The notes: generated from the letters alone by a model not told the origin. A stretch of DNA of 64,000 nt from Balanoglossus misakiensis (GCA_040954595.2 CM082579.2:15848550-15912549), one strand, 5' to 3'. Counted from the stretch's first letter, positions 5,976-29,400 are shown. Numbers and translations: made by a program.

Positions 5976-8900
5976 CGATTTGGGAGTTCGTTGCAAGTAC
6001 TGCTGGCAGAGTGCTCGATGGTGTAAATCCAGAGCTTGATAGTAGAGTGTGCAAGGGAACTAAGGCTGTTTTGACATAGGCGGTGTATTACTGTTCAGTT
6101 TCGTGTAAGCGGGGCCTACACTCGTCAGACACTGATGCCTGAATGATGGTGAAGGGTGTGGACAACAGGGAATTGGGTAGGGTGGATATGCAAATGGGCC
6201 TACATTTGAATGGGAGTGTGTATTGATTGGGGCTGTGTGGAGGGGTGCTGATTGGCCAGATTCTTCAGGAGGAATTTGCTAGAGTGGCGGCATGTGCTGA
6301 CGAGTTCGTTACGTTTGTTGAGTGTGGCTAGTTTTGGTTTGCATATGATGAAATATTTTTCCCAAAGACATAGGTTGCATCTGTTGCTGGTGGGGGTATA
6401 GGGGCTAGCTTGTTTTATTGTTTTCCATGTGATTTTGTGTTCTATGTGCTCGTCCTTTAGTTTCCAAATGTATTTACTGAGTTCTGTACTGTTCTTTTTG
6501 GCGGCGTTCCTGAATGAGTCCTTGTGGTTGTTGAAGCGGGTCTTGAAGGTGTTGGCAGTTAGTCCGACGTAGGTTTGGTCTGGCTTGCTATCCTGCGTAG
6601 TAACGGTGGCTTGGTATACAATTGATTCGGTCAGGCAGTGTCCTGACATTGGGCAGTTTGCAGGTGACCGGCAGTTGCATTGTTTTTTAGTGCTGTTGTC
6701 GTTGTTGCTGGAAAGTACCGATTTGTTGTGATTCTGGATGGTTTGTGCTGTGTTGCTCATGGTGCTGTAGCTTATTTATACTGTGTTCCGGTTGAATATC
6801 TTGTGGAGGGTGTGGCTTGGTGGGAATTCTTCGTTAATTATTTTGAGGAACTCTCTCCCTATATGTGTGGCGACGTTTTTACTGTACGGTGGGGTGTACC
6901 ATATTATGTTCCTGCTGCGGTTTCTCTTGTGGGCTTGTGGTTGTTCTGTTGGCGGCATGAATTTCAGTTCATGTTTGTATCCGCTTTTGTAGATGGCCTG
7001 TTGGTATAGTGGTGCGGCCGTGTTGAAGCATTCGTCGTCATATGAAATTTCTGAGAGTCGCTTGTTGATGGATTCTGGTATGTTTTTGAGGATTCCTGGT
7101 GGGTGGTTTGATTTGCTGTGGACGTATTGCGGTATGTTGTTGGGTTTCGTGTAGGGCTGGTATTTTCCGGTGGTTAGGTTCAGGGTGGTGTCGAGAAAGT
7201 TCACAATTTTTTTGTTGGCTTCGATTGTGATTTTCAGTCCATATTGGTTGAAGATGGCGCAGAGGTCTTTCTTTTTGCGTTCCACTTGTCGTGCTGACGC
7301 CTTGATTATACCGAGGCCGTCGTCCCTGTATAGGCCAAATTGGTTGCCGTGTTTTTTGGTGATCTCGTGGAGTATGAATGTGCCGACAAGCTCGCATGTT
7401 TCGGCGCCATCGTAGCTCCCCATGGTTACGTCAAATAGGTTGGATGATGAGTTTTTCGTCCATTGTTCATTTTCGTTGAAGAGGCATGATCTCTTGGCAT
7501 GGGTGATAATTTCTTTTTCGTCATTGGTGATATTATCATGGTTGGATGCAAATTCCAGCGCTGTGTTGAGCAGGTCGGCCGAGATGGATGGGTAAAAGTC
7601 TACCACATCGAATGCAATGAATGAATATTGGTGCTTGTTGGGGATGCTATTAAACCATTTTAGAACTGCTTTGGTGCTCTTCCATTGGTTGAGACCTGTC
7701 TTTGTGATGACTTTCTTGTTGATTCTGTCTAGTATTTGTTTGCTGATTTTTCCGATTTCTGATTTTGCTGGGTTGATGAGACGGCATGTAGGCTTGTTTT
7801 TGAAGTTGGGCTTATGGTCTTTCAGGGTTATGAATGCTTCCCTTTTGGCTGTGGTGTTGATTCTGTCACCAAGGTCTAGTTTTGCTGCAATGTGGGCGGC
7901 GTCGGTTTCGATCATTTTGGTGGTTTCCGGGGGGACCTTCTTATATGACTTAGTAATGTTCTTGCTTAGTAAGGTATTGTAGGAAGGGGGGTCCATCTTG
8001 TAAAAGTTGTTGGATTTGTCTGCTGGTACGAGGAGGTCCTGGGATTTCTTGATTTTGCTAACATCTGATGCTAGTTGTCTTTGGAAGCGGCAGTTAATAT
8101 TTTGAAATTTTATGTTTTCGATCATGTTCAGCAGCCTGCCTTCAAAGCTTACCAATTCTTGAATTTGCGGTGGTGTCTTTTTTGAGTTGAATCCGTATGT
8201 TTCTTTGTTTATGGCACGTGTTTCTGGGTTTAGAAAGAAGTAGGCTTTCCATCACATGCGTCTGCATAGGTGCTCGGTTTTTTCTATCAGTTTCCTGTTG
8301 TACTCACGTTCTGATGGTAGTCCGATGTTCTTCGTTGAATAGTCAAAACTTCTGGGTTCCATGACAGTGGTATTTGCGAAGAGTGCTCGACACATGGGAG
8401 CGTAGTAATACGATTTGGGAGTTCGTTGCACGACGAATGCTTCAACACGGCCGCACCACTATACCAACAGGCCATCTACAAAAGCGGATACAAACATGAA
8501 CTGAAATTCACGCCGCCAACAGAACAACCACAAGCCCACAAGAGAAACCGCAGCAGGAACATAATATGGTACACCCAACCGTACAGTAAAAACGTCGCCA
8601 CACATATCGGGAGAGAGTTCCTCAAAATAATTAACGAAGAATTCCCACCAAGCCACACCCTCCACAAGATATTCAACCGGAACACAGTATAAATAAGCTA
8701 CAGCACCATGAGCAACACAGCACAAACCATCCAGAATCACAACAAATCGGTACTTTCCAGCAACAACGACAACAGCACTAAAAATCAATGCAACTGCCGG
8801 TCACCTGCAAACTGCCCAATGTCAGGACACTGCCTGACCGAATCAATTGTATACCAAGCCACCGTTACTACGCAGGATAGCAAGCCAGACCAAACCTACG

Positions 8901-9423
8901 TCGGACTAACTGCCAACACCTTCAAGACCCGCTTCAACAACCACAAGGACTCATTCAGGAACGCCGCCAAAAAGAACAGTACAGAACTCAGTAAATACAT
9001 TTGGAAACTAAAGGACGAGCACATAGAACACAAAATCACATGGAAAACAATAAAACAAGCTAGCCCCTATACCCCCACCACCAACAGATGCAACCTATGT
9101 CTTTGGGAAAAATATTTCATCATATGCAAACCAAAACTAGCCACACTCAACAAACGTAACGAACTCGTCAGCACATGCCGCCACTCCAGCAAATTCCTCC
9201 TGAAGAATCTGGCCAATCAGCACCCCTCCACACAGCCCCAATCAATACACACTCCCATTCAAATGTAGGCCCATTTGCATATCCACCCTTCCCAATTCCC
9301 TGTTGTCCACACCCTTCACCATCATTCAGGCATCAGTATCTGACGAGTGTAGGCCCCGCTTACACGAAACTGAACAGTAATACACCGCCTATGTCAAAAC
9401 AGCCTTAGTTCCCTTGCACACTC

Positions 9424-9495
<72 letters not shown>

Positions 9496-12195: not shown

Positions 12196-15041
12196 CAAAT
12201 CACCGGTTGTGATTTTGTCGGCGCCGGTAGATTGAGTAAAGGTGTCGGCAAAAATTTGGTTGTTACCGGCATTTTAGATTACGGCGTCGGCACCCAATGT
12301 GCGTCATATTTTCAGCATATGCGTTCCTATCGTTTGTCTATGGACTTTACCCATGTATTGAGAGAAGTTGTCGGGGGTCCCCAACGGCTTTCCATAACAG
12401 ACACTAGCGTTCGTTAGCAACGGTAATCAAGTCGGATTTCCTTCGGCCTGGCTCTGCAAAAGACCCGACACTCTAGTACAAAGACGTTGGCTAAGTCGGG
12501 CAAACCGAACAGGGAAAGTCACAGCGGGTCAACACTCGACATTTGTTCCGGTAGGACAAATCACTGCATTATTGCCTGTCAATTTATAGAGAAAGCCCGA
12601 ATTTAACCAGGGCGTTTCAAACACCGACGTTAGTTGGGGCACGGCCTGCAGTACTGCCGGGTAAGCTGACATCAGCGTACCGCATATAATGTAGGGGGGG
12701 GGGGGGGAACAGAACGGTTAAATACTACATTTATCAGATATCAGCTAATTTTGGACAATCATCTAAAATGTAAATCATCTTTTCATATTTGGATATCTGA
12801 TGATGTATGACATTTCCATTATATGTAAAAATGGTGCTGATTATAAAAATGCACTCTGAATGAGCTGATTTAATGCAAAATTGCGTTTTATTCGTTTTTG
12901 CACCAAAAAGGTCATTTTTAGGCAAAATATTCTTTATTTTTTTAATTCGGTGACCTGATCATATATAAACAATTGCTTGTATGTTAAAAGTTTTTATGAC
13001 TTTTAAAAGCAGTGACACTGGCGGCATTCAACACGAAAATAACAATTTTAGCCACAATTTGGTCAAAATGGTAAATTTTTGAAAATTACAAAAAATACCT
13101 GTTTTCTACATTTTCGGAAATCTGATGGAGTATAGAATGCTCTTCGTATGTATATATCGATACAAATTCCACAACAGACCGTCTAATTTGGCTCACTGCA
13201 GACAAAATTGCGTTTTACAAAATTTTCCTTGAAAATGTCATTTTTAGAAAAAAAAAAATTAAAAAACCTTTTATCTTCGAATTTGGTGCCCTGATCATAT
13301 ATGACATGTTGATTGTATGTTAAAACTTTCGACCACTCCAAAAATGCAGGGATATTGACGGAATTCAAGAAAAAATAGCCATTTTGGCCATATTTTGACA
13401 AAAATGGTAAATTTTTAAAAAATCATAAAAAATTAACTCTTTTCTTCATTTTCGGAAATATTATGGAGCATGAAGTGTCGTTCTCTTCTAAAAAGTGCTG
13501 CAAATTCCAGAAAAGGCGGTATAATTTGAATCACCCAAGACAAAATTACCATTTTCGACTTTTTTTCGAAATATTGTTTTTTTACAAAATAAATAAGAAT
13601 AAATTCTTTTCTTAGTTTCAAACAGGTAGAGATACTTTCCACACGGGTTTTCTAACATTGAATTCCCGTTCATCAACTCAGATTTCCTACAGCATAAGTC
13701 GGCTAAAACCCTGAGACTTTAGAGCAGAAACAGTTGCACACTGGTAACGTTGAACAAGTCGATTTTTCTACGGCCTGGCTCGGCTAAATCTCCGTCACAA
13801 TATGACAGACACTATCGTACGTTAGCAACGGTGATCAAGTCAGATTTTCTACGGCATGGCTTGGATAAAGCCCCGGCACTAGAGCAGAAACACGCGTACA
13901 GAGACCACGTTGATCTACTCACATTTCCTTCGGCCTGGCACGGCTGATGCCCCGGCACTATATATAGGACACAGACTGGCGTAAGTTAACAACGGTAATC
14001 ACGTCGGGTTTCCTACGGCCTGGCTCAGCTGAAGCCCCGGCGCTCTAGAGCAGAAACAGGCGTACATTGACCACGTTGATCAAGTCAGATTTCCTACGGC
14101 GTGACTCGGCTGGTGCACCGGCTCTATATGACACAGACTGGCGTAAGTTATCAACGGTGATTACGTCGGATTTCCTACGGCCTGGTTTAGCTGAAGCCCC
14201 GGCACTTTAGAGCGGAAACTCGCGTACATTGACCACGATGATCAAGTCAGATCTCCTACGGCCTGGCTCGACTAAAACCCCGGCACACCATGACAGACAC
14301 TAGCGTTCGTTAGCAACGGTGATCAAGTCGGATTTCCTTCGGCCTGGCTCTGCAAAAGACCCGACACTCTAGTACAAAGACGTTGGCTAAGTCGGGCAAA
14401 CCGAACAGGGAAAGTCACAGCGGGTCAACACTCTACATTTGTTCCGGTAGGACTGCATTATTGCCTGTCAATTTATAGAGAAAGCCCGAATTTAACCAGG
14501 GCGTTTCAAACACCGACGTTAGTTGGGGCACGGCCTGCAGTACTGCCGGGTAAGCTGACATCAGCGTACCGCATATAATGTAGGGGGGGGGGGGGACAGA
14601 ACGGTTAAATACTACATTTATCAGATATCAGCTAATTTTGGACAATCATCTAAAATGTAAATCATCTTTTCATATTTGGATATCTGATGATGTATGACAT
14701 TTCCATTATATGTAAAAATGGTGCTGATTATAAAAATGCACTCTGAATGAGCTGATTTAATGCAAAATTGCGTTTTATTCGTTTTTGCACCAAAAAGGTC
14801 ATTTTTAGGCAAAACATTCTTTATTTTTTTAATTCGGTGACCTGATCATATATAAACAATTGCTTGTATGTTAAAAGTTTTTATGACTTTTAAAAGCAGT
14901 GACACTGGCGGCATTCAACACGAAAATAACAATTTTAGCCACAATTTGGTCAAAATGGTAAATTTTTGAAAATTACAAAAAATACCTGTTTTCTACATTT
15001 TCGGAAATCTGATGGAGTATAGAATGCTCTTCGTATGTATA

Positions 15042-15302
15042 TGTAGTAAATACCGGTTACTAACCTGGTAGGTACTACGGGTTGTCTTATTCCGGGCCAC
15101 AGAGTTTTGCTTGGTACTGGTAGTCAGTCCTGGTAGCGTGTTGCTCTGATGCTGGTCCGGGTCGTTCTGGTTCTGATAGTTGAGAAACGTGGGTAAAAAC
15201 CAGTAGCACAGGTGCAGGGCATTCCGTAGTGCAATTACGTCAGAGGCGTCCCACCTGTACAGCAGGGCGCCACCAACGGCCAGAAGCCCACAAATTACTA
15301 CA
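15042..15302 (-). repeat. 3' LTR (261 bp)
   Basis: TGTAGTAA...TTACTACA; one mismatch seen versus 26149-26409. Confidence 0.96.
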
Positions 15303-15323
15303 CTCTTCCCACTTTTCTTTTTT
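15303..15323 (-). other. Polypurine tract
   Basis: - strand AAAAAAGAAAAGTGGGAAGAG directly abuts the 3' LTR. Confidence 0.9.
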
Positions 15324-15424
15324 GGCAGGATGGTCAACCTAGGGATCTCAAAAGGCTAGAGAAGTTAACGTATTTTTCCCACCCCTGCAATCTGCCAACC
15401 TCATGGTCTTGGCGAGATTGATCC

Positions 15425-18199
15425 CTAGTGATATAGACGTCTGGTGTTACGGACAGTTGCTTCAAGAAGGTGCACTAGATCAGTCCCCCTTGAGTTAGCA
15501 ACAGCCACGGCCACATCCCCTATAAGAGCTGGAGTACTGGTTACATCACGAGGGCCCCCAAGATACGGCGAATCTGTTTCTATTAACAGACGCTCGATGG
15601 GCACCTCCTTCAAAGCTCGAATCTGGCAACGGTCAAATTTGGTGGTCGTGATGGAGAAACCGAAGTAACAATTCTTGAAGCGCTTCGACCACCTTTGAAC
15701 AGTGTTGACCGTACCAGTAAAATTGTGGATATGTATTTTCTGCCGTGGCGAACACCATTCCTGTACTAATTGCAATGCTTGGCAATGCACATCTGACCCA
15801 TACTGGTCCCCATATGGCCCTCTAATGTGCAGGACTAAGGGTTTCTCAGGCACACACATGGCAAGTGCTCGAGAGAGAACCCTGTCTTGGGCGCTCCCGT
15901 ATTTACTTGGCTCTGTGCGGTCGAGACCCACCTCCCCAAGGGCGGCTACCTGTGTGCTCGTGACAAGCCGCTTGAGGGCTTTAAAGGTCCTTTCGTCGGC
16001 TCTTGGAGCTTTCCTTGGATGGATCCCGATGGCGATACTCCAACCTTTGGGCCGGTTCAAATCCATGGGGTAGTACTCCGGATCGCAAAAGACCTCGACG
16101 CCCCCAATGATGTTGACAGGAAAATTCGCCCTTGGGCCATTATGCCAGTTAACCAAAGCTACTGATGTTGCAGGGCAGTCCCTACCGCGAAATCGAACCA
16201 GTGTTCGGTCAAGATGAAAGTGGGAATCCATGGCTTCCAATAGACTGTCTGATTGTAGATAATCCTGTGCTGTCCCCTGTAACTCTTGCTCAATAGGTTG
16301 GTCAGCTTGGGATTCTATTGTAATTGAGTCCAGTATCACGTATTCAACCGGGAGCTCAATTTCTGATGGTGGGATCGGGACTGAGTCCTGTATCACGTGA
16401 TCAACAGGTTGCTCAGCCTGTGGGATCCTTTCAGTACAGTCTAATGGAATTTCTTTCTCTACTTGATCACCCCATGAGATTCCCTGGGACGTGGAGTCCT
16501 GTATCACGGATTCAACAGGTTGTTCCATTTCTCCCATACCTATAATCATTGCCAAGTCTTGGTGTGCGTCCTCCACATGGATCGGACTATTTCCTGAGGC
16601 TACAGGTGAATATGTGATCTCCCTCGCATGAGTTGGAGATTGGAACTCACCTTCATTTTCGGAAACCATTTCCTGGTCGACACAGGAGCCAGTCTCCCCC
16701 CTAGGGGTAGGTGACCGCGGCTCGCCGTGATCTGCCTCAGGATTCTCTGTTACCATTTCCTGGTCTGCACTTGGCGAGCAGGAGACAGTCTCCCCCGTAA
16801 GGGTAGGTGACTGAGGATCTCCGTGCTCTGCCTCGGGGCCTTCCAGTTCCGGCATCGGATGACATGGTGAATGCGAGGTGATCTCCGCCACTGGGGTGGG
16901 AGACCGGGACTCACCATGCTCCCTTGGGGGTACCACGGGTTGGAAGGCTTCCCGCTGCTCCTCAGTCAGGTGCGAAAGGAGGATGACGAGAATCCTCCAA
17001 TGCAGCAGGACGGCTGGTGAATTCGGTGGGTGCAGCGAGAATCGTCGTGGTACGGCCCATCCGCTGGTCTGGCACAGTCGCTTCATCATCAGACAGTTGG
17101 CTTCGGTGAGCGCAGAGGATGCTGGGACTTCTTCCAAGTGATGTTGCAGGAAGTACTCCAGCAGCTTGGTGACAGTTCCTCTGGGGCCCAAAACCCAGCC
17201 CGCCAGCTTCAGCAGGGCATGAGTAACATCAGCTGTCTGCATGATAAGGGGGTTTTCCTGTAGACGGGGGTCGATATGGTAGAAGAAGCAGTGCCGTTTG
17301 AGACGTTTGGAGGTCTGCCCACATCCTGGAATAGGGCAGGTACATGAGCGGCTGTTGGTAGATTTTCTGCTTCTTCTACCCCTACAGGAATTGGTCGCCG
17401 CAGTCGTGGTGGTCTTTGACTTCGGCACCCCCTTCGGCTCCTGTGCCATCCATACAACGGAGCGTCGCCGCCGCTTCCCGTCACGCTGTATGGTCACCTC
17501 CAAACGAGATTCCTCACCCCGCTCTCGCTTCTTTGGTTTAGTGGCCGCCATCTTCTGCGTTCCTCTCCGTGGCTGGCTTGATGTCTTTCGTGGTGGCTCA
17601 CGGGGGGTACTTTTCCGTGGCTCTGCCAGGGGTCGCCGCGCAGCTACTGCTGAGTACAATTCACGGGGCGCTGCAGAAGATGGTTGTGTCGATGTTCTTC
17701 GGGGTGAGGATGCCCGCGATGTTGAGGCGATGGAGGTGACTGGGTCCCTGCCTTGCATGGTGTCTTCTACTACAACCGTCTCCCCCGACTTCTTCAGCAG
17801 GTGCTTGACAGTCGGGAGATCGGGCTGCGTCTGTAGGCGAACATCACGGCAGGGTCCAGACGTGACGGTACTGCTGGGACGGGACTTCCGTTGCGGGATC
17901 CTGTTCTTATGCGGATCCCGATGGAGAAGATGCTTGTACAGCCATTCCTCGGAGAAGATCACATCGGCTTCGCGGCGTGTAGTCTCCACCCAATGCCAAT
18001 GGCCTCTCCGAGATGCTAGTTGATACTGGCGTAACAGCATCCTCTCCTTTTCAGGGAGCGTGACCTTGGCCAGCCCGATGCCGTAGGTGAGGTCGAGTGG
18101 TGGAAGCAGAATCCGTGTCCGGTCTGCCTCCACCACTTCTTGCCAGGTCATATGCTGCTTCTTAGGGCGATGTCCCCCGCGATACCGCTGGGAGTCCAT
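15425..18199 (-). CDS. Retrotransposon ORF3: basic/low-complexity region, C2H2-like finger, Pro/acidic repeats, C-terminal TatD-family metal-dependent nuclease
   Basis: Open for 924 aa from MDSQRY. TatD motifs DSHFHLD, IGIHP, ALGEVGLD, PLVLHIR, IHIHNFTG, YFGFS, LLIETDSPY, NTRRLY (about 15428-16240). CPIPGC...HCFFYH finger. Confidence 0.88.
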   Translation of the reverse strand: MDSQRYRGGHRPKKQHMTWQEVVEADRTRILLPPLDLTYGIGLAKVTLPEKERMLLRQYQLASRRGHWHWVETTRREADVIFSEEWLYKHLLHRDPHKNRIPQRKSRPSSTVTSGPCRDVRLQTQPDLPTVKHLLKKSGETVVVEDTMQGRDPVTSIASTSRASSPRRTSTQPSSAAPRELYSAVAARRPLAEPRKSTPREPPRKTSSQPRRGTQKMAATKPKKRERGEESRLEVTIQRDGKRRRRSVVWMAQEPKGVPKSKTTTTAATNSCRGRRSRKSTNSRSCTCPIPGCGQTSKRLKRHCFFYHIDPRLQENPLIMQTADVTHALLKLAGWVLGPRGTVTKLLEYFLQHHLEEVPASSALTEANCLMMKRLCQTSGWAVPRRFSLHPPNSPAVLLHWRILVILLSHLTEEQREAFQPVVPPREHGESRSPTPVAEITSHSPCHPMPELEGPEAEHGDPQSPTLTGETVSCSPSADQEMVTENPEADHGEPRSPTPRGETGSCVDQEMVSENEGEFQSPTHAREITYSPVASGNSPIHVEDAHQDLAMIIGMGEMEQPVESVIQDSTSQGISWGDQVEKEIPLDCTERIPQAEQPVDHVIQDSVPIPPSEIELPVEYVILDSITIESQADQPIEQELQGTAQDYLQSDSLLEAMDSHFHLDRTLVRFRGRDCPATSVALVNWHNGPRANFPVNIIGGVEVFCDPEYYPMDLNRPKGWSIAIGIHPRKAPRADERTFKALKRLVTSTQVAALGEVGLDRTEPSKYGSAQDRVLSRALAMCVPEKPLVLHIRGPYGDQYGSDVHCQALQLVQEWCSPRQKIHIHNFTGTVNTVQRWSKRFKNCYFGFSITTTKFDRCQIRALKEVPIERLLIETDSPYLGGPRDVTSTPALIGDVAVAVANSRGTDLVHLLEATVRNTRRLYH

Positions 18200-18234
18200 G
18201 ATCTGTACAAGAAAGAATAAGAGACATGATGAGG

Positions 18235-20570
18235 TTACACTGAAACTGCGCTTATTTCGCTTGGTTTGCAGTTGGGACAAGAAAACAGTGCTTTTTTCTT
18301 AATTTCGGTTGGTGTAACATTCACACACGCTCCATGAAACCATTCATAGCAATAATCACACTGGATCATAAGTTTCCCATCATCAGGTTTCCTGCAAAGG
18401 CAATATACTTCACCCATTCCTGCGCTGTCCTTAAGTAAGGTCTTCCTAAAGGTTACTATCCAGCGAGGAAGCTCTTTATCCTGGCAAGGCTTTAGCCGAT
18501 CGTGATGGGCGGTCCAAACCTCTCTTCGCAATTTGATGCGGAAGAGATAGGGTGTGATTTTGGTGATGATGACCCCTGGTCCTTTCCAAGGTGGGCACAG
18601 TTTACGGCATTTGCCTTTCGTGGATCCGGTATCCAACAGATATACTGGATCCCCGACCTTGAAGGACTGCTTGTTCACTCGGAGGTCGTAATCACGTTTC
18701 ATTCTTTCTTGTGTGGTCTTCAGTATTTCCCGCGCTGTCTCATGAGAATTCATTATGGCCTCCTCCAATTCGTACACATACCCCTCATGAGATTGGTCAG
18801 TGTTTGTCCTGGGAGGCCGGAATACAAGATCAGCGGGCTGGTTTATTTCCCTACCTAACATCATCCGGTTGGGCGTAAAACCAGTGCTGCGGTTGACTGA
18901 AGAGCGGAGAGCTCCGGCGATCTGTGAGAGAAATTTATCCCATTCTTTCTGTGACTTGATGTAGCATCTGATTGCGTTCATCAAAGTGCGATTCTGCCGT
19001 TCCGCCTGGCCATTAGCAGATGGTCTGTAAGAAGTGGTTCTTGTTTTATGGATATGAAGAATCTCACAAATCACTGAAAATAACTGACTTTCAAAGTTTC
19101 TTCCCTGGTCAGTGTGAATTTCAAATGGATACCCGAACCTGGTAAAGAATTCAGCTACTGCGGCGTGTGCTGTTTCCTCAGCATTTTGGGTTGGCAGCGG
19201 TATACATTCTACCCACTTGGTGAATTGATCTACCATTACCAGGATATAATCATTACCTCGAGGTGTCTTGGGTAACGGCCCTAGGAAATCCAAGTGAACT
19301 CGTTCCATCGCTGCCCCCGCATGAAATAGGGTCAGCTGATGTCGGTGGTGTCTGTGTGCTTTCTTGTCGTGATTGCAAATTGCACACATTGTGACATACT
19401 TGCGGATGTCGTGGGACATCCTATACCAATGGTATTTGGTCCTGATTCTGGCTTGAGTGCGCTGTATTCCCTGGTGCCCACAAGATGGAATATCATGATT
19501 CAACCGTATAACTTCATCTTTCATGGTATTAGGGATGACTAGTTGTTTGGTGTTTTCATCTGTGGCCGACTTTCTCCACAGTACTCCCTCCTCAATGAAG
19601 TATAGGTCACGGTTGATCCAATAATTCTTTGCTGCAGGGCTGGAGAGTCTCAGCTCTCCTTCCTCAGGAACTTTCCCAGTTTCAAGCCATGTGATGAGAA
19701 TCCCCAGTGTTTTATCAGTCTGCTGTGCCTGTTGGTATTCTTTGTGAGAATATCCTAGGATGGCTGTTCCCAGTTTAGTGGAATCCTCTCTGGATAGTAT
19801 GCAGACTTGTACAGGATCCGGAAAGTGGGAAATTTCGAGGTTCGAATGAGGCACGTCGATTAGTTCGTCCTGGACTGTGTCACGGGTGATTCCGCAGCAA
19901 GTTAATAGACCCAAGTTACCTCCAGGGTCCCATGGCCAGGTCTCTTCATCTTGAATTGCTGGTTGTATTTGTGGGTCCATGCTACCGGTACATTGGTTCA
20001 CCACATATGGCCCTTCTTTTTGGTGGAGTTGGCTGTTCCTGTGTTTGTCTCTGGGTTCAGCCATGGTAAGGGGAATTACATCATCCACCTCATTGATGAA
20101 CGGGCTCCAGTTTCGATGTGCTCTGCTGCAATAGTTGCATCCCCCGCAAGGTAAGGATTCCAATTTTGTTCCATGCTCAAAATTGGTGCAGGCACTTTGC
20201 TCGGGTAATCTTGACAGGGAGTCGGCGTTGATGTGTTGTTTTCCTGGTCGGTGTTGCACAGTAAAGTTGTACTGGCTTAGTTCTTCTAGCCAGCGAGCTA
20301 ATTGGCCTTGTGGTTCTTTGAATCGTATTAGCCATAGCAAACTGTGATGATCTGTCCGTACCAGAAATTTATTACCAAGCAAGTAGTATCGAAACTGCCG
20401 GGTGAACCTTACGACTGCCAGCAATTCTTTTCTTGTGGTGCAGTACCGTCTCTGTTCAGGTGTCAGGGCATAACTTCCATAAGAAATTGTTCTCTCCTTG
20501 CCGTTCTGTATCTGGGATAACTCAGCTCCGATGGCAAAGTCTGAGGCATCCGTGTCTAGAATGAAGTTAT
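18235..20570 (-). CDS. pol: Pol 3' part: RNase H, integrase (HHCC + DDE) and C-terminal PHD finger
   Basis: ILDTDASDFAIGAELSQ, TTRKELLA, RTDHHSL, ADSLSR; HDIPSCGH..CAIC; VHLDFLGP, HTDQG, GQAERQN; YCLCRKPDDGKLMIQCDYCYEWFHGACV...CPNC. Confidence 0.93.
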
Positions 20571-21257
20571 AATAATAATAATAGTTTATTCAGATACAAT
20601 ATAGGCCACCGGCCTCTGTGTATACAAACTAGTACGTCACCTGAAATCTCCGGAGGACGCAAAAATGTAAAATAATTGTCGAATTACATCATGGCCATGA
20701 AAAAGGAAAGAAACGAATCACACTTCAGATCGTTTTTTCGTGGCAAAAAATACAAATTTTGACAGATTACGCAAGATACTTGGGTTACATGATTGCATGA
20801 GGAGGTAACATTTATCGTAGGTTGGCATAAAATAGTAATATCTAGGAATATACTTGACTCGTAAATCCGCATAGAATGGACACACAATACAAAAGTGAAA
20901 TTCATCCTCTATCTCATTACCATTACAATAGATACATGTTCTATCTTCACGATTATTGCGTAATCGCCTGTCAGCTTCGATACGTAAAGCGTGCGCTGAT
21001 ATTCTAAATCTACAAAGTGCCTCTCGAAAGTGCGACTTTTCAATCATGTTGAAATACAATTCTCGTCGAAAAATATGTTTGAACTTTCTGTAAGAGTCTA
21101 GTTTAGGAAACAAACGTAGACTAGTATGCCAGTTTTGAACATCTAGATCATGACAACGCTGTTTGAATAAGGAAATAAAATTGACATTGTTACCAACCCC
21201 CTGATTAACCCATGCCTCACCCATTCCATAGGAAAAAAGTAACATTTTCACATCGTG
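20571..21257 (-). mobile_element. 5'-truncated LINE (RT C-terminal region with CCHC finger, RTE-X-like) inserted in pol
   Basis: 13-bp TSD AGAATGAAGTTAT at 20558-20570 and 21258-21270; AATAAA + (ATT)n tail; ORF 20718-21251 with CIYC...EDEFHFCIVCP. Clade assignment is tentative. Confidence 0.88.
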
Positions 21258-23380
21258 AGAATGAAGTTATCCTTTGTATTGGGCAAGGTCAGAACAGGGG
21301 CAGCGGTGAGTGCTTTCTTGATGTCCTCAAAAGCTTGATGTTGCTCATACCCCCAGGCGAATGGTTTCTTCCCGGTTACACTGTACAGAGGTACCGCTAA
21401 CTTGGCATAATCCTTGATGAAGGCGCGATGGTAGTTCGCAAATCCTGCAAATTTTTCCACGTCCTTCGTGTTGATAGGGATTGGCCATTCTTGGATCATC
21501 CGAATAGATTGATCTTCAAGAGATATTCTGTTTCTACCAACTTTCCTAGCCAGGAAACTTACTTCCTGTTGGAATAACTCACACTTTCTTGGCTTGAGTT
21601 TCAGTTGGTACTTCCGTAGTCGTTTGAAGACTTCCCGGAGATTTTTAAGGTGTTCTTCGAAGCTTGATCCGAGCACCATTATATCATCCAGAAATGCCAG
21701 TACGATGTCCCAAGTTAGGCCCCTTAGTACTAGGTTCATCACTCTGGAGAAAGTAGCAGGTGCGTTGCACAGACCAAACGGCATTCGGGTAAATTCGTAC
21801 AAACTGTATTTGGTGGTGAAAGCCGTTTTCTTGCAGTCGGGTGGATTAATACTTATCTGCCAGTATGCCGAGTTGGCGTCCAACTTGGAGAACCATAGAC
21901 ATCCTGATAGAGTGTCCATACAATCCTCCACCAATGGCAGCGGAAAAACGTCCTTTACGGTGATGTTGTTTAGGGCTCGATAATCCACACACCAACGCAC
22001 GCTTGCATCTCGTTTTCGCACTAGAACTGGTGCCGAAGCCCATTCGGAGATTGATGGCCTTATAACTCCGGCATTCAGCATTTTCTTTAAGTGGGCTTCT
22101 TCTTCCCCTGCAAAACACATTGGAGTGCGCCGTAGACGTTGCTTTATTGGTGGATTGTCTTTTGTGTCGACGCTATGTGTGATTGCAGTGAAATTTCCCA
22201 GATCAAATTCGTCCTTGGCGAAAACATCTTCGTAATCGAACAGAAGTTTATGTAGTTGGGTTTGTTCATCTGCTTGAAGATGACTGCAGGATCTTTCAAA
22301 CAGATTTCCTAAATGTGAAGGTAGCCCGCCTACCGGCTGAGGGCGTACTTCAGTCTTCTGTTGGGCGTCAGGTGATGGGACGGTGATCACCTCCACTTCT
22401 GTAGCTGATGCGATAGGATCCTTGCTCTTCAGAGTTATATAATTCTCCGTCGGGTTGACTAAACAAACCTTAGGTGATTGTTCCCCCGAGTGAAGTGTCC
22501 TGGGCATCATTACTTTCAATCCCTGGGTTGGTTCTACCAAATAGTCGGTTAGATCCGTATCGAGTAAACAGGATATTCTGACCACACTATTCGGTGGGAT
22601 GATTGTCCGTCGCTTCAAAGTTACCTTTGCCACTTTCGGCGAATGATCCCTCTGTCCAAGGGTCATAGGTATGTTTTCCTCCCCCAAATGGAGCCAGTTG
22701 TTACTCATGTTGATGGTTGCTCCATTTGCTTGTAGGAAATCAACTCCCAGTAGCATTTCGTCGCCTATTGGGGCTACGTATATATCGGCATTGAAGACGG
22801 CACGTCCTAGCTGGATGTCAACGGGTCCGACCAGGTTGGCTTTCATGGTTAACTGTCTTCCAGCTGTTTGCATGGTAACTTCCCGCAATATTGGAGGTTT
22901 TACTCGCAGACTGTTGTACAGTTGGTCAGAGATAATAGTGACTTCTGCGGCGGTATCGATGATAGCGGTAGCGGACTGGTCTCCAATTTTTGCTGGGATG
23001 CTATACATTGAACTGGACACAAGTTGGTTAATGACAACCATAGGCATGTCATTAGCTTCGGATGTTGCCATACTGGTCTTTGACGATTTTGTCTCTTCCA
23101 CTGTTGAGTTGGTCACATCTGCGCAATGTGTACCATCATCAGTTGGAGTTGGTATAGTCGTTGTATACACATCTGCACAATGTGTATTGACATCAAGTGT
23201 TACCGATTCAGCTGATGGCGATGGCACGTCAATATTACAGTTGCGATCGCCCTCCGTGGAAGCGTTGAGGCCATAGGTTATGGGTTGTTGGGTCAAACTT
23301 TGGCCTCTGGGCTTGACCCTTTGGTGTTTAATGGACTGGCCGGCGCTGTTTCCTTCTTTTCTGATGTTCCATGGGGACAT
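21258..23380 (-). CDS. pol: Pol 5' part: aspartic protease and reverse transcriptase
   Basis: AIIDTAAEVT, LLGVDFL, CVDYRALN, LDANSAYWQ, MPFGLCNAPATF, FLDD. Removing the 700-bp LINE+TSD rejoins it in frame to the 3' part. Confidence 0.94.
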
Positions 23381-24966
23381 TCCCTCTTAAAATGGCCTAT
23401 CTCGCCGCACCCATAGCAACCACGGCTTCTCGGAGATGGGGATCAGTACCTTGATGTCTGCTGCGTTGTCACCACTTTGGTTAATTCGGCCAGTTGGGTG
23501 GTGACAGTCTGCAAAGTTGCGCTGATTGCCGACATCTGCGTCTCCAGCCTCGACATCCTCCCCTGCATCTCAGTTCCTCCGTCTTTGCTTCTCGGGCGGA
23601 TGGGAGCTCTTTCAGGAGAGGGTGATTGTTTTCGCTCATACCTGGAGACAGATCGTGCTTCGATGTTGGTTTTCGGGTATTCCGGATCAGGACTTACAAA
23701 TCGTACTTCCCGCCTCTGCGATCGGATGCCATAGATTGCTTGATGATTATACTGGAATCTTTTGACAGTATCGATCGCTGCTTCGATGGAAGTTGGACGC
23801 TGATTTGCTGCCCATTGGCCTGCTTCTCGATCACAACATCCTTGGCAAAAGCGCATCACAGCTTGAAGCTCTATGGTGGCATCGCTGCTTTCTTGAAATG
23901 CCTGCATCGCAAGTGAATAAACCCTGTCCGCCCATTCTTCTAATTTCTCCTCGGTGTTTTGTCGGATCTGGGCGAACTGAAGCTGACTGGATTCTGGAAT
24001 CTCTTTCAAGCCGAATCGTTTCTCCAGTTTTTTTAGCAGCTCGTGATAGCTGACGTCTGCGTTTTTCTGGAGGATCCTGGTATAAACTTCACTTGCTTTC
24101 CCCTCTAAACACCAGCACAGATAATTTTTGCATTCATTGAATGACATGTCCTGCATCTCGGCAAATTTCGTGAATTTTACCTGATATGCCTGCCAGTTTC
24201 CGGAGCCATCGTAGATTAGCGTCCTGGGAACTGACATTGGGATGTGACGATGACTTGGTCTGTCCATCCGGTTATCATGCTGGTAGTAGGGTTGAGTTCT
24301 GGGAGGAGCGAATTCTGTTGGATAATGGCCATCATAATAATCCGGTGATGCACCCGCTCGTGGTCTGGACACATTCACCCGTGATGGACGATAATTCTGC
24401 TCATCTTCAGGCCAGGTCGCATATCGCTGTTCATCGCGAACACTTCGTGGATATGGTCTACCATACGCAGGAGCATCTGGCCTGTACGCAGGATGGAATG
24501 AACTATCATACCCCCGAGAGTCGGTATGATGTTGACTTACCCTATCCTGCGTATAGTCTGGTTCGTCAAATCGCCTCGATCGAATAGGTGCTTTGGGTTG
24601 TTGATGTCGTGAAGGTCGTTGAACATGTCTGCTTTCGCGTTCTTTCGTGACCTTGTCAATCCTTTCCATCCATTCCTTCATGCTATCTTCATCACTATCC
24701 TTCCCGCTGTCTTCCTCATCTTCCCAGAACGGGGCGAGATGGGTAGTTGTGTTCATGGATGGTTTGGCTGAAGCACCTGGTGGGTCGAAGTCGGCCATCT
24801 CCGTGAATTCTTCGGATGGTTTGAACCTAGGAATACTGCATACCATCTCATATGTTACATAGCCATGTCGTTCACGTAATCGCAGAATCGCCTTGGCTAT
24901 TTTCCGTCCCACTCCAGGTAGACATTGAAGAGTTCCTAGAGTACTGGTGTTGACGTTGATTTTCAT
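23293..24966 (-). CDS. gag: Gag with N-terminal helix-hairpin-helix domain and C-terminal CCHC knuckle; one in-frame TGA at 23443-23445
   Basis: MKINVNTSTLGTLQCLPGVGRKIAKAILRLRERHG; capsid-like YDGSGNW...LEGKA...RQNTEEKLEEWADR; frame continues past TGA into CYGCGEIGHFKREC...PLNTKG. Confidence 0.88.
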
Positions 24967-26135
24967 GATGGCGCGTTAGAAATTATTGAGATGGAAGTTG
25001 CAGATACCGTTGTCGGAAAATATTACCCACACAAGGACAGAGTAATATTTAACAAAGTGATATTACTCGTAATATTTACTGAGCAATACCCAAATTGATC
25101 AGTTTGTCACAAGAATAATCAACGACAATGACCAATCAATTATATCACAACAATAATAGAACCCGCAATTATACAGAGTAATATAATGTGATAATAAGAC
25201 TAGTACGACTGATATCAATAATACAATAATTGGAATGGCTCACAATAATAAAACTCGCAATAATACTGAGTAATACAATGCGACACCAAATATTATTGAT
25301 ATAGCGAATAATTGAACAGTTTCAACACTTACCAATTGCTGAGGAATTACAGTTCTGTACTGATACTGTGTGGTACAACTAGTAAAAATGCGAAACAAAG
25401 CGGAATTTGTTAAAGCGAAACTTTTCAGAAGTAAAACAACAGATAAAAGACAAGTCCGAAAGCTGGAACTTGTCCGCACAAAAAGTACGTAAAATTATGA
25501 CGAAAGGTGCGGTGTACAGAACTGCCACAAAAAATGGCTTCTTTGACGAAATGGCTTCCTCGTCAATGCAATGGTGGCACCAATACTAGCAGAAAGTTAC
25601 TTTCCAAGCTATCCGTACACACACAACGGCAGTATAACGGGCTAGGAAGTATAACTGCAAATCTTACCTTGCCGTGTTCGGAAGTTCGCCGTACACACAA
25701 AAAATACGGTAAGACAAAGTACACGTAAAACAACACAGAAATAAGTTGTGAAACTTTTCCTTGAAACGTGCACAGAAAAAAAACGGCACAGTGTAGCGGA
25801 AAATTCCTCTCACTGAATTTCTTGAACTTGGCCCCAGCTGTCCGAACTTCAATAAATATTACAAGCTTTACCGGAACAACTGGAGATTCGTTCCCAGTTT
25901 TATCTCGACTTCACCTAGTTCTCTGTCTCCCACCAGAAAAACTAATGAAGACGGTTTCTTGGTGCAAGTGTTGAAAACTGAAAGCACTTGGGCGTCCGCA
26001 CTACTCCTATAAGTTTCAAGCGGAAAGCCGCGACGCAACTTTAACGATAGCGAGTACTCCGACTACTTATCCTCAAAAATCGGCAAAAAGTTACCAACGG
26101 AGTTTTTTCACCTTTTCCCCACTAGGGTTGAAAAG

Positions 26136-26146
26136 TCGCAGCGCCA
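26136..26146 (-). other. Primer binding site (TGGCGCTGCGA, probably tRNA-Ser)
   Basis: Starts 2 nt inside the 5' LTR boundary with TGG; resembles the complement of a tRNA-Ser 3' end. Confidence 0.7.
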
Positions 26147-26148
26147 AT

Positions 26149-26409
26149 TGTAGTAAATACCGGTTACTAACCTGGTAGGTACTACGGGTTGTCTTATTCC
26201 GGGCCACAGAGTTTTGCTTGGTACTGGTCGTCAGTCCTGGTAGCGTGTTGCTCTGATGCTGGTCCGGGTCGTTCTGGTTCTGATAGTTGAGAAACGTGGG
26301 TAAAAACCAGTAGCACAGGTGCAGGGCATTCCGTAGTGCAATTACGTCAGAGGCGTCCCACCTGTACAGCAGGGCGCCACCAACGGCCAGAAGCCCACAA
26401 ATTACTACA
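26149..26409 (-). repeat. 5' LTR (261 bp)
   Basis: Near-identical to 15042-15302, followed by TATA TSD. Confidence 0.96.
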
Positions 26410-29400
26410 TATATATCGATACAAATTCCACAAAAGACCGTCTAATTTGGCTCACTGCAGACAAAATTGCGTTTTACCAAATTTTCCTTGAAAATGTCAT
26501 TTTTAGAAAAAAAAAAAAAAAACCTTTGTTCTTCGAATTTGGTGCCCTGATCATATATGACATGTTGATTGTATGTTAAAACTCTCGACCACTCCAAAAA
26601 TGCAGAGATATTGACGGAATTCAAGAAAAATAGCCATTTTGGCCATATTTTGACAAAAATGGTAAATTTTTAAAAAATCATAAAAAATTAACTCTTTTCT
26701 TCATTTTCGGAAATATTATGGAGCATGAAGTGTCGTTCTCTTGTAAAAAGTGCTGCAAATTCCAGAAAAGGCGGTATAATTTGAATCACCCAAGACAAAA
26801 TTGCAATTTTTCGACTTTTTTTCGAAAAATTGTCTTTTTTACAAAATAAATAAGAATAAATTCTTTTCTTAGTTTCAAACGGGTAGAGATACTTTCCACA
26901 CGGGTTTTCTAACATTGAATTCCCGTTCATCAACTCAGATTTCCTACAGCATAAGTCGGCTAAAACCCTGAGACTTTAGAGCAGAAACAGTTGCACACTG
27001 GTAACGTTGAACAAGTCGATTTTTCTACGGCCTGGCTCGGCTAAATCTCCGTCACAATATGACAGACACTAGCGTACGTTAGCAACGGTGATCAAGTCAG
27101 ATTTTCTAAGGCATGGCTTGGATAAAGCCCCGGCACTCTAGAGCAGAAACACGCGTACAGAGACCACGTTGATCAAGTCTGATCTCCTACGGCTTTGCTC
27201 GACTAAAACCCCGGCACACTATGACAGACATTAGCGTTCGTTAGCAACGTTGATCAAGTCAGAATTCCTACGGCATGGCTTGGCTAAAGCCCTGGCACTC
27301 TAGAGCAGAAACACGCGTACAGAGACCACGTTGATCTACTCACATTTCCTTCGGCCTGGCACGGCTGATGCCCCGGCACTATATATAGGACACAAACTGG
27401 CGTAAGTTAACAACGGTAATCACGTCGGGTTTCCTACGGCCTGGCTCATCTGAAGCCCCGGCACTCTAGAGCAGAAACAGGCGTACATTGACCACGTTGA
27501 TCAAGTCAGATGTCCTACGGCGTGACTCCGCTGGTGCACCGGCTCTATATGACACAGACTGGCGTAAGTTATCAACGGTGATTACGTCGGATTTCCTACG
27601 GCCTGGTTTAGCTCAAGCCCCGGCACTTTAGAGCGGAAACACGCGTACATTGACCACGATGATCAAGTCAGATCTCCTACGGCTTGGCTCGACTAAAACC
27701 CCGGCACACTATGACAGACACTAGCGTTCGTTAGCAACGTTGATCAAGTCAGATTTCCTACGGCATGGCTTGGCTAAAGCCCTGGCATTCTAGAGCAGAA
27801 ACACGCGTACAGAGACCACATTGATCTACTCACATTTCCTTAGGCCTGGCACGGCTGATGCCCCGCACTATATATAGGACACAGACTGGCGTAAGTTAAC
27901 AACGGTAATCACGTCGGGTTTCCTACGGCCTGGATCAGCTGAAGCCCCGGCACTCTAGAGCAGAAACAGGCGTACATTGACCACGTTGATCAAGTCAGAT
28001 TTCCTACGGCCTGGTTCGACTAAAACCCCGGCACACCATGACAGACACTAGCGTTCGTTAGCAACGGTGATCAAGTCGGATTTCCTTCGGCCTGGCTCGG
28101 CAAAAGACCCGACCCTCTAGTACAAAGACGTTGGCTAAGTCGGGCAAACCGAAGAGGGAAAGTCACAGCGGGTCAACACTCGACATTTGTTCGGGTAGGA
28201 CTGCATTATTGCCTGTTAATTTATAGAGAAAGCCCGAATTTAACCAGGGCGCTTCAAACACCGACGTTAGTTGGGGGCACGGCCTGCAGTACTGCCCGGT
28301 AAGGTGACATCGGCGTACCGCATATAATGTAGGGGGGGGGGGAGAAACAGAACGGTTCAATACTACATTTATCAGATATCAGCTAATTTTGGACAATCAT
28401 CTAAAATCTAAATCATCTTTTCATATTTGGATATCTGATGATGTATGAAATTTCCATTATATGTAAAAATGGTGCTGATTATAAAAATGCACTCTGAATG
28501 AGCTGATTTAATACAAAATTGCGTTTTATTCGTTTTTGCACCAAAAAGGTCATTTTTAGGCAAAACATTCTTTATTTTTTTAATTCGGTGACCTGATCAT
28601 ATATAAACAATTGCTTGTATGTTAAAAGTTTTTATGACTTTTAAAAGCAGTGACACTGGCGGCATTCAACACGAAAATAACAATTTTAGCCACAATTTGG
28701 TCAAAATGGTAAATTTTTGAAAATTACAAAAAATACCTGTTTTCTACATTTTTGGAAATCTGATGGAGTATAGAATGCTCTTCGTATGTATATATCGATA
28801 CAAATTCCACAAAAGACCGTCTAATTTGGCTCACTGCAGACAAAATTGCGTTTTACCAAATTTTCCTTTAAAATGTCATTTTTAGAAAAAAAATAAAAAA
28901 ACCTTTGTTCTTCAAATGTGGTGCCCTGATCATATATGACATGTTGATTGTATGTTAAAACTTTCGACCACTCCAAAAATGCAGAGATATTGACGGAATT
29001 CAAGAAAAAATAGCCATTTTGGCCATATTTTGACAAAAATGGTAAATTTTTAAAAAATCATAAAACATTAACTATTTTCTTCATTTTCGGAAATATTATG
29101 GAACATGAAGTGTCGTTCTCTTGTAAAAAGTGCTGCAAATTCCAGAAAAGGTGGTATAATTTGAATCACCCAAGACAAAATAACCATTTTCGACTTTTTT
29201 TCGAAAAATTGTCTTTTTAACAAAATAAATAAGAATAAATTATTTTCTTAGTTTCAAACGGGAAGAGATACTTTCCACACGGGTTTTCTAACATTGAATT
29301 CCCGTTCATCAACTCAGATTTCCTACAGCATAAGTCAGCTAAAACCCTGACACTCTAGAGCAGAAACAGTTGCACACTGGTAACGTTGAACAAGTCGATT

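Follow-up and report, generated by a model that had tools for sequence, protein, structure and literature searches.

A Ty3/Gypsy retrotransposon copy of Balanoglossus misakiensis with a helix-hairpin-helix Gag, a PHD-finger integrase, and a third gene carrying a predicted TatD nuclease domain

The locus discussed here lies in a window of 64,000 nucleotides of Balanoglossus misakiensis (GCA_040954595.2 CM082579.2:15848550-15912549), from the first letter of which all positions below are counted. It raises the question of whether three unusual modules, namely a helix-hairpin-helix (HhH) head on Gag, a PHD finger on the integrase, and a zinc finger joined to a TatD domain in a third open reading frame (ORF3), belong to one long terminal repeat (LTR) retrotransposon and are inherited as its parts, and what they might do for it. 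We consider it probable, on the strength of sequence comparison, that the locus is a young, twice-broken Ty3/Gypsy copy from a conserved clade characterized by an HhH Gag, a PHD integrase, and a zinc-finger-TatD ORF3, a reading that includes the roles predicted below. The anatomy of the copy can be read directly: two lesions interrupt it, its three modules are conserved in their order, and the PHD, TatD, and finger ligands are retained.

The element occupies positions 15042-26409 on the minus strand (11,368 bp) and is bounded, as LTR alignment indicates, by a 5' LTR at 26149-26409 and a 3' LTR at 15042-15302 (both minus strand), each 261 bp long with TG..CA termini and identical to the other at 260 of 261 positions, the sole mismatch being A at 15122 versus C at 26229. 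This one mismatch suggests that the parent family was recently active. The flanks belong to a tandem macro-repeat of about 2 kb, and at least 15 other units of it in the window offer paralogous empty sites, in which the left and right flanks run on from one another, overlapping by 4 bp (as at 12653-13154 / 13151-13652). The target site duplication (TSD) TATA, read in the flanks on the element's 5' side (26410-26413) and 3' side (15038-15041), is proven by these empty sites, and the initial annotation, which had reported a single LTR difference and a TATA duplication, was correct on both counts. In public contigs, moreover, 15037 is directly followed by 26410, and the 11,372 bp left out amount to the element together with the TSD. 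The element is a clean insertion into one macro-satellite unit; no obvious promoter is present at this macro-satellite location. It would be a different matter if the locus were chimeric through misassembly or consisted of unrelated elements nested together, with modules that are not those of one element, as might be feared in a highly repetitive region for which public runs give short contigs only. We regard this as extremely improbable: the LTRs are near-identical, the exact 4-bp TSD matches the empty paralogous sites, contigs join across the empty site, and 11 independent contigs repeat this order of genes. All three modules, the HHH_3 head of Gag, the PHD of the integrase, and the TatD of ORF3, are recognized by Pfam within this one pair of LTRs, as had been claimed.

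Two nucleotides past the 5' LTR lies the TGG-initiated sequence TGGCGCTGCGAC (26135-26146, minus strand), a candidate primer binding site; the 64,000-nt window has no tRNA gene. At the other end, a polypurine tract, AAAAAAGAAAAGTGGGAAGAG (15303-15323, minus strand), adjoins the 3' LTR, and both sequences stand where such an element would have them. The LTRs with their TG..CA termini, the short TSD, the order of the pol domains, and a Gag capsid with a CCHC knuckle together place the element in the Metaviridae.

The first of the modules stands at the head of Gag. The gag gene extends on the minus strand from its ATG to a premature stop (23446-24966, 507 aa) and encodes an HhH head, a disordered linker, and a capsid that matches PNMA / Retrotrans_gag in Pfam. 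The head comprises Gag residues 5-41 (24844-24954, minus strand) with an LPGVGRKIA hairpin that is kept in five of six Gag homologues, and it matches HHH_3 of Pfam with 33.4 bits (cutoff 27; E 4.8e-8). Its best matches among solved structures are the HhH repeats of EEPD1 (6.7e-6) and ComEA (0.0023), with which it shares the signature IN-x-NT...LPGVG...A..I..R, but it differs from them as a single copy at the extreme N-terminus of a retrotransposon capsid protein. There it may allow Gag, or the particle, to bind nucleic acid independently of sequence. The premature stop, an in-frame TGA (23443-23445, minus strand) found by frame reading and by comparison with relatives, is the first lesion; it directly precedes SPSP..CYGCGEIGHFKREC, so that the CCHC zinc knuckle, CYGCGEIGHFKREC, falls in the downstream remainder of the gag frame (23293-23442, minus strand). 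None of the relatives compared has a stop at this position, and zf-CCHC is present in relatives. The remainder overlaps the pol frame, which is the -1 frame relative to gag, by 94 nt, a stretch that showed no canonical X_XXY_YYZ slippery site.

Pol is split into two parts, the first of which (21258-23386, minus strand) encodes the protease, the reverse transcriptase, and the start of RNase H, and the second of which (18238-20570, minus strand, with its stop at 18235-18237) encodes the rest of RNase H, the integrase H2C2 finger, the rve core, a GPY/F-like stretch, and the PHD finger; the Pfam order is aspartyl protease, RVT_1, RT_RNaseH, Integrase_H2C2, rve. The DTAA motif of the protease was considered as a lesion and rejected, since it is a clade trait. 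Between the two parts, within RNase H, lies the second lesion, a 687-bp 5'-truncated non-LTR retrotransposon (LINE; 20571-21257, minus strand) that terminates in a (TTA)n-like tail and is flanked by the 13-bp TSD ATAACTTCATTCT at 20558-20570 and 21258-21270; its ORF resembles the C-terminus of zf-RVT, which we give as a lead only. The gag TGA and the LINE in pol are the two lesions that the initial annotation had listed, and no others were noted.

The PHD finger forms the C-terminus of the integrase (18268-18402, minus strand; residues 730-774 of the second pol piece) and, as had been proposed, is a PHD in both Pfam (E 9.7e-9, 35.6 bits against a cutoff of 24) and structure-database matches; Pfam reports no chromo domain, and the PHD finger takes the chromodomain's place. 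Among solved structures it stands closest to readers of H3K4me3: PHF2 (1.2e-13), PHF8, SPP1, CFP1, DIDO1, BPTF, and TAF3, the E values for these and KDM7 running from 1e-13 to 1e-8. With the PHF2-type fingers it has in common the Cys4-His-Cys3 zinc ligands, each kept in 20-21 of 21 family sequences, and the cage residues W (21/21), M (20/21), and Y (17/21), the cage positions having been assigned with the help of the alignment to PHF2 and PHF8; it differs from them in being fused to a retroelement integrase and in having D in place of one cage aromatic. At this second aromatic position, W or Y occurs in 13 of the 21 sequences and D in seven, and because the present copy has D, its reading of H3K4me3 is not assured. 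We propose that the finger would dock the intasome on H3K4me3 nucleosomes and thereby likely steer the choice of insertion site, in parallel with the role of the chromodomain for H3K9me in chromoviruses. The finger could instead serve something other than integration targeting, by binding unmodified H3K4 or another ligand or by acting in integrase multimerisation or nuclear import, and the acidic cage position and the insertion of the present copy in satellite-like DNA are both in keeping with this; we nevertheless judge it distinctly unlikely, since every one of the nearest homologues with a solved structure reads H3K4me3 and the W, M, and Y of the cage are conserved.

In its placing, the targeting role that we prefer for the finger has a precedent in the chromoviruses, which share the PR-RT-RH-IN order and carry a small histone reader after the GPY/F stretch of the integrase, presumed to tether integration to marked chromatin (in part, PMC6673714); their reader is a chromodomain, whereas the element has a PHD of the H3K4me3-reader type, together with an HhH on Gag and a nuclease-type ORF3. 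PHD fingers on transposition proteins are also described for CR1-like LINEs and Chlamydomonas elements (PMC6673714) and for the Ginger1-9 transposase (PMC2836005), but these are other classes of element with the PHD placed differently, and the relevant passages of the two papers report no TatD gene or HhH Gag for them.

The third module is ORF3, an uninterrupted frame of 924 aa identified as an ORF with a Pfam domain (15428-18199, minus strand, with its ATG at 18199 and its stop at 15425-15427), which encodes a helical N-domain, a basic linker, a zinc-finger/helical domain, an acidic linker, and a TatD domain. The TatD domain (15428-16234, minus strand) is a predicted Group II nuclease domain that matches TatD_DNase (PF01026) in Pfam at E 8.4e-35 (120.8 bits against a cutoff of 27) and, among solved structures, E. 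coli TatD (1.2e-11) and YcfH (1e-11); it scores below the cutoffs of the bacterial TatD family models. Its HxH motif, DSHFHLD at residues 658-664, sets Group II (TATDN2, TATDN3, YcfH, and YjjV) apart from enzymes with (G/A)xN (Dorival and Eichman 2023, PMC10085689), and its two histidines are retained by 24 and 22 of 24 family members; the other metal and catalytic sites, the E of GExGxD, two His, and the E and D of ETD, are all in the present copy and in 21-24 of the 24. ORF3 thus has HxH and every other metal or catalytic position of Group II, and as in TATDN2 its TatD domain stands at the C-terminus of a long protein (PMC10085689). It differs from Group II enzymes in being encoded within a retrotransposon and in having, in its N-terminal half, the conserved finger and a helical domain with an LLHWR motif (16937-17374, minus strand; model pLDDT 94), a comparison that does not extend to cellular TATDN2. 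The finger ligands C288, C293, H303, and H308 form a C-x4-C-x9-H-x4-H motif of atypical spacing that is shared without exception by the 25 aligned family members, and the structure model predicts a beta-beta-alpha fold, with a hairpin and a helix over the ligand residues (pLDDT 94). Of the earlier description of ORF3 as C2H2 plus TatD, therefore, the TatD part holds and the finger holds as this motif, whereas the Pfam C2H2 profile does not, no such family being reported at E<=0.01 in the present copy.

Whether the modules travel together was assessed with relatives found in metagenome contigs and in host sequence contaminating bacterial MAGs, by a search whose query was the integrase-PHD region and which was hence blind to TatD and HhH. 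A PHD is borne by seven of 79 metagenome loci and by four of the 10 genome-collection loci scanned, and all 11 have an ORF3-family match downstream in the same order; the five contigs that span gag to ORF3 (L003, L010, L091, L092, and L094) all have the HhH Gag head, at about 1e-13 with the family HMM. The relatives are 42-65% identical to the element over the integrase-PHD region (tblastn best segment), and ORF3 identity across the PHD-bearing relatives is 25-40%. The phylogeny with modules mapped onto it, as had been proposed, was built from the integrase with FastTree after removal of the PHD columns and of 10 short-match loci, including the PHD loci L010 and L012; in it, the 10 PHD+ORF3 rows, of which the window is one, group in a single clade (SH-like support 100), and the HhH-bearing, PHD-less L005 is sister to this clade. 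The claim of a distinct Gypsy lineage with three co-inherited modules is supported by these comparisons. In protein searches, the ORF3 family has 194 cluster representatives at E<=1e-30, most of which match in two to three stretches that include N-terminal parts, and Pfam PHD occurs in 78 of 119 integrase matches, a proportion biased upward by a query that itself had the PHD. The named relatives come from molluscs, echinoderms, and a hemichordate.

This constancy also bears on whether ORF3 is a mere passenger, a host TATDN2-like gene captured by an ancestor and carried without benefit. Public annotation labels such genes as host genes, a 'TATDN2' model has transposon genes for neighbours in the Hox region of the giant squid (PMC6962438), and TATDN2 likewise has a long N-terminal extension (PMC10085689). 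We hold this to be very unlikely, because a useless gene would decay or vanish over such a distance, and ORF3 keeps its place in all 11 PHD relatives, with catalytic and zinc ligands conserved at so low an identity.

In our preferred reading, in which ORF3 is of use to the element, its protein would be translated from a spliced subgenomic mRNA. The 5' leader has a putative donor, AGGTAAG (25663-25669, minus strand), and an acceptor-like pyrimidine tract with CAG lies 3 nt upstream of the ORF3 ATG (18203-18217, minus strand); a pyrimidine tract and AG directly before this ATG are present in the copy and in six relatives. None of the RNA runs contains the sequence. TatD enzymes have 3'-5' exonuclease and AP endonuclease activity (PMC10085689), and the ORF3 protein may be an enzyme of this type, likely a metal-dependent nuclease that would act on the nucleic-acid intermediates of the element, either trimming or removing RNA:DNA or single-stranded cDNA. 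The zinc-finger/helical domain might guide it there, which is a guess, because neither non-TatD domain of ORF3 has an informative fold match among solved structures.

A comparable layout is seen in the bdelloid rotifer LTR retrotransposons Juno and Vesta, in which a DEDDy 3'-5' exonuclease or a GDSL esterase is encoded by ORF3 (Rodriguez et al. 2017, PMC5408684). As in the element, this third ORF is an enzyme gene and not an env, its catalytic residues are intact, and it is predicted to process the 3' ends of RNA or ssDNA (PMC5408684). Membership in that type was considered and rejected, as ORF3 matches only TatD in Pfam, and the likeness concerns layout and not family membership: the nuclease here is a TatD TIM-barrel metal hydrolase instead of a DnaQ-like DEDDy enzyme, the hosts are marine molluscs, echinoderms, and a hemichordate, and ORF3 adds a zinc-finger/helical domain and travels with the PHD and HhH modules. 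The enzymatic ORF3s of Juno and Vesta are equally unexplained (PMC5408684), and ORF3 could be a counter-defence or host-interaction gene instead of a replication enzyme, its TatD destroying, in the manner of TREX1, nucleic acid that would stimulate immunity, such as RNA:DNA hybrids and excess or abortive cDNA, or the protein filling the env slot and helping cell-to-cell spread. The env position and the apparent env-like splice acceptor would suit such a role, as would the anti-phage TatD nuclease QatD among the weak NCBIfam matches of ORF3 (1.4e-15, under its own cutoff); an env-like role is disfavoured by the translation, in which no signal peptide or transmembrane segment was noticed by eye. 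On balance, we think a counter-defence or host-interaction function unlikely, though not strikingly so.

A broader reading can be entertained, tentatively and with the odds against it, namely that the clade is an old, undescribed Metaviridae branch of marine molluscs, echinoderms, and hemichordates that has assembled a toolkit (a capsid with an HhH head, an integrase that reads H3K4me3, and a spliced third gene) and retained it whole, that the life cycle requires the step performed by the TatD nuclease under the guidance of the zinc-finger/helical domain, and that many TATDN2-like 'host' models are a transposon gene. Were this so, the required step would be the processing of cDNA or RNA:DNA hybrids, or evasion of nucleic-acid sensing, and many such gene models in invertebrate genomes would be the ORF3 of a transposon. 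No paper that reports a TatD gene within a Gypsy element turned up in our literature search; in public annotation, ORF3-like genes bear the names 'TatD family hydrolase' and 'uncharacterized protein'.

Extra protein domains are rarely fixed in LTR retrotransposons, and the clade to which the element at 15042-26409 (11,368 bp, minus strand) belongs has kept three of them together over a long time: a helix-hairpin-helix (HhH) head on Gag, a PHD finger that ends the integrase, and an ORF3 with a zinc-finger/helical domain and a TatD domain. In outline, the element would be an ordinary Ty3/Gypsy replicator plus these three add-ons. The evidence for their linkage comes from the DNA around relatives of the integrase-PHD region, for which we analysed 79 metagenome loci and 10 of 80 genome-collection loci, the remaining 70 of the latter being weak, partial matches in bacterial genomes. 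A PHD finger was present in 7 of the 79 metagenome loci, and all seven have ORF3-family matches directly downstream, while the other 72 have neither PHD nor ORF3; PHD was likewise present in 4 of the 10 genome-collection loci, each with both the ORF3 finger and TatD. Truncated contigs leave only part of ORF3 visible in two loci, just the N-domain in L006 and no more than the beginning of TatD in L004, and in L012 the TatD domain is decayed. An HMM built from the family's HhH heads matches (~1e-13) every contig that spans the start of gag (L003, L010, L091, L092, and L094), this start being reached in L003 where the contig wraps through an LTR. Locus L005 has a weaker HhH match (1.6e-5) and a pol that ends without PHD, its contig stopping before any ORF3 position, and L097, with 5 kb beyond the integrase, has none of the three modules. 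These loci prove that the three modules travel together, as the initial annotation had proposed in treating them as co-inherited.

That annotation had also called for an RT/IN phylogeny and suggested that the modules may define a distinct Gypsy lineage, which the integrase tree supports. In a FastTree phylogeny of 80 rows, computed on the integrase core after removal of the PHD columns and of ten loci whose matches were short (L010 and L012 among them), the 10 rows with PHD and ORF3, the window copy included, form one clade with an SH-like support of 100; the next branches outward are L005, its sister (93), and then L095/L096, which lack the modules. On the simplest reading of these sequences, the HhH head would be the earliest acquisition, with PHD and ORF3 present by the base of the clade. 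The clade also shares a protease motif, DTAA, which lies at residue 142 of the first part of pol (about 22950) in the window copy and is common to all clade members examined and the sister L005 (L002, L003, L005, L091, L092, and L094), with D-S-A-A in L010; the outgroups L095, L096, and L007 have the usual D-T-G-A. Among protein relatives, every one of the modules proved common. Pfam PHD was found in 78 of 119 integrase matches, a proportion biased upward by a query that itself contained the PHD, with named sources in Mytilus, Pinctada, Pecten, Nucella, Haliotis, Anneissia, and Diadema. The ORF3 search returned 194 cluster representatives at E<=1e-30, mostly matching in two or three stretches, the named relatives being from Ptychodera flava (53% and 42% identity), Ostrea edulis, and Lytechinus variegatus. 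A scan of IMG/VR gave no relevant element.

The gag frame opens with an ATG at 24966 on the minus strand and would end at 23293. Its head matches Pfam HHH_3 at residues 5-41 (4.8e-8, above cutoff) and is followed by a PNMA/Retrotrans_gag capsid; among solved structures, the head resembles the HhH repeats of EEPD1, an animal protein (6.7e-6), and ComEA of bacteria (0.0023), and it is common to five of six Gag homologues, one of them from Mytilus coruscus. There is about an even chance that the head gives Gag sequence-independent binding of nucleic acid, with cDNA, chromatin, or RNA as candidate targets. An in-frame TGA at 23443-23445, immediately ahead of SPSP..CYGCGEIGHFKREC, the zinc knuckle, is a lesion specific to this copy, since relatives read through the position without a stop. 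The pol frame opens at 23386 in the -1 frame and overlaps gag by 94 nt, an overlap in which no canonical slippery heptamer was found. Its first part, to 21258, encodes protease, RT, and the beginning of RNase H; its second, to 18238, encodes RNase H, an H2C2 finger, the rve core, and the PHD finger (Pfam PHD 9.7e-9).

Between the two parts lies a 687-bp insert (20571-21257), flanked by a target duplication of 13 bp and ending in a (TTA)n-like tail, and the frame changes from one piece to the other because the insert and one copy of the duplication amount to 700 bp. The insert has no Pfam match, and its ORF is similar to the C-terminal zf-RVT part of non-LTR reverse transcriptases, 26 of 30 Atlas matches falling in such clusters with scores of 0.94-0.96; we identify it as a LINE from the target duplication, the tail, and, as a lead only, the Atlas match. 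Elsewhere in the window, a non-LTR retrotransposon occupies 768-4383 (plus strand), with an ORF1 containing Baculo_FP_2nd (3.5e-16) and an ORF2 containing an EEP endonuclease and RVT_1, and the insert proved unrelated to it on comparison. No lesion beyond the gag TGA and the pol insert was found in the element, so that the earlier count of two stands.

The closest solved relatives of the PHD finger are PHF2 (1.2e-13), PHF8, SPP1, CFP1, DIDO1, BPTF, and TAF3, all of them readers of H3K4me3. The zinc ligands are retained in 20-21 of 21 integrase C-termini, and the cage residues are also well represented (W in 21, M in 20, Y in 17); the second cage aromatic is W or Y in 13 of the 21 and D in the window copy and six others. 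Tethering of the intasome to H3K4-methylated nucleosomes by the PHD finger is slightly favored as its predicted role, the odds being lowered by the acidic residue in the cage and by the satellite DNA in which the window copy lies.

ORF3 runs uninterrupted from an ATG at 18199 to 15428 (minus strand; 924 aa) and comprises four conserved parts, namely a helical N-domain, a basic linker, a zinc-finger/helical domain, and, beyond an acidic linker, the TatD domain at its end (8.4e-35). The N-domain model (pLDDT 88) has no Foldseek match, and its best VIA-align score, Z 6.5, is to helical-repeat proteins, a likeness that says little when the domain is a helical bundle; the top ESM Atlas score for the N-terminal half is only 0.80. 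The zinc-finger/helical domain, which includes an LLHWR motif, is modelled at pLDDT 94.3 and pTM 0.87, and all 25 aligned sequences keep the C-x4-C-x9-H-x4-H ligands of its finger; Foldseek gave no match for the domain at E<=0.001, and the highest VIA-align score was Z 3.6 (rmsd 4.4 over 79 aligned residues). The disordered acidic linker contains a short direct duplication (16665-16741 / 16752-16837, 77% identity) that repeats a ..P(Q/R)SPT..GET(V/G)SC.. peptide.

An HxH motif, the defining mark of Group II TatD proteins (TATDN2, TATDN3, YcfH, and YjjV; PMC10085689), is present in the TatD domain; the domain's remaining metal and catalytic positions are all present in the window copy and retained in 21-24 of 24 family members. 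This conservation makes ORF3 a probable active nuclease. TatD enzymes act as 3'-5' exonucleases on single strands and as AP endonucleases on duplex DNA, according to the same paper (PMC10085689), and processing of cDNA, RNA:DNA hybrids, or 3' ends may tentatively be put forward as the role of ORF3; clearance of immunogenic nucleic acid instead would be a rather unlikely one. That ORF3 is a pure passenger is also unlikely, because clade members have kept it at an ORF3 identity of 25-40%. In two ORF3 relatives, P0134 and P0151, there are apparently two zinc-finger/LLHWR modules each, and Tyr replaces the second His of HxH; these two may represent a divergent sub-family or lack activity.

A pyrimidine tract with CAG ends 3 nt ahead of the ORF3 ATG, and a donor-like AGGTAAG is found in the leader at 25669. 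In six relatives (L003, L004, L010, L091, L092, and L094) a pyrimidine tract with AG is likewise found 1-9 nt ahead of the ORF3 ATG; in three further relatives the scan did not reach the homologous ATG. These acceptor- and donor-like signals would fit an env-like spliced message for ORF3.

The LTRs (15042-15302 and 26149-26409, 261 bp each) have TG..CA ends, with a TGG-initiated PBS-like site 2 nt inside the 5' LTR and a 21-nt polypurine tract adjoining the 3' LTR; described from the outset as near-identical, they differ at a single position, 15122 A vs 26229 C. The proposed TATA target duplication holds as well: TATA is present at both ends of the element, whose host site is one unit of a ~2-kb tandem macro-repeat occupying most of the window, and flank-matching sequences are contiguous, with an exact 4-bp overlap, in at least 15 other, unoccupied units (e.g., 12653-13154 / 13151-13652), which are paralogous empty sites. 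In public contigs (one sample), 15037 is joined to 26410, with 11,372 bp skipped. The paralogous empty sites prove that the element inserted cleanly, duplicating 4 bp, and an assembly chimera is accordingly very unlikely. The one LTR mismatch in 261 bp, the intact ORF3, and the presence of two lesions only indicate that the insertion is recent, within the wide uncertainty that a single event carries. The macro-repeat itself (11900-64000) consists of units of ~1.9-2.5 kb, each with an array of 81/162-bp sub-repeats (e.g., 13672-14372, 26924-28120, and 53349-54700), and is a very abundant satellite-like family, with a k-mer depth in public contigs of ~1e5 vs 300-450 within the element.

Histone readers on integrases are known in the form of chromovirus chromodomains, and of PHD fingers in some retroelements, from passages of PMC6673714; chromoviruses read a silent mark, whereas the clade integrase is predicted to read an active one, which offers a natural contrast for chromatin reading. 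Enzymatic, non-env ORF3s are described, in parts of PMC5408684, for rotifer Juno/Vesta, with a DEDDy exonuclease and a GDSL esterase; the rotifer DEDDy ORF3 is the earlier nuclease gene in the env slot and the TatD ORF3 a second, independent case, which makes the use of such nucleases by retroelements more testable. In the open literature, outside Repbase Reports and subscription journals, we found no report of a Gypsy element with a TatD gene or with a Gag headed by HhH. The window contributes the linkage of the three modules, the clade-wide DTAA, a confidently modelled zinc-finger/helical domain in ORF3 that neither of the two fold searches matched, and the conserved acceptor-like signal ahead of ORF3.

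The element's genes also appear in databases under other identities. ORF3 and integrase-PHD relatives are annotated as host genes, as 'TATDN2', 'COMPASS component SPP1', and 'NYNRIN-like', the name TATDN2 being absent among the 20 ORF3 representatives looked up. Animal Gypsy contigs (loci L091-L097; proteins P0004, P0058, P0098, P0147, and P0155) occur in bacterial MAGs that bear the labels Sedimenticola and Candidatus Thiodiazotropha, and their ORF3 and pol go under the bacterial names 'TatD family hydrolase' or 'DDE-type integrase'; these contigs in symbiont bins are host contamination. Such misannotation distorts gene counts and the assessment of MAG quality.

Two further features were observed in the window. 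At 6039-9429, inverted repeats of 1,000 bp (6039-7038 and 8430-9429, 99% complementary) surround a 491-aa ORF (6776-8251, minus strand) that has no Pfam match and shows RT-like motifs by eye (..FDVVDFYPSI.. and ..YRDDG..); GC and AT skew are strong across the region, possibly an unusual retroelement whose terminal repeats are inverted. At 34706-35170, a 70-bp tandem repeat is present in 6.6 copies with 98% matches and is distinct from the 81-bp family.
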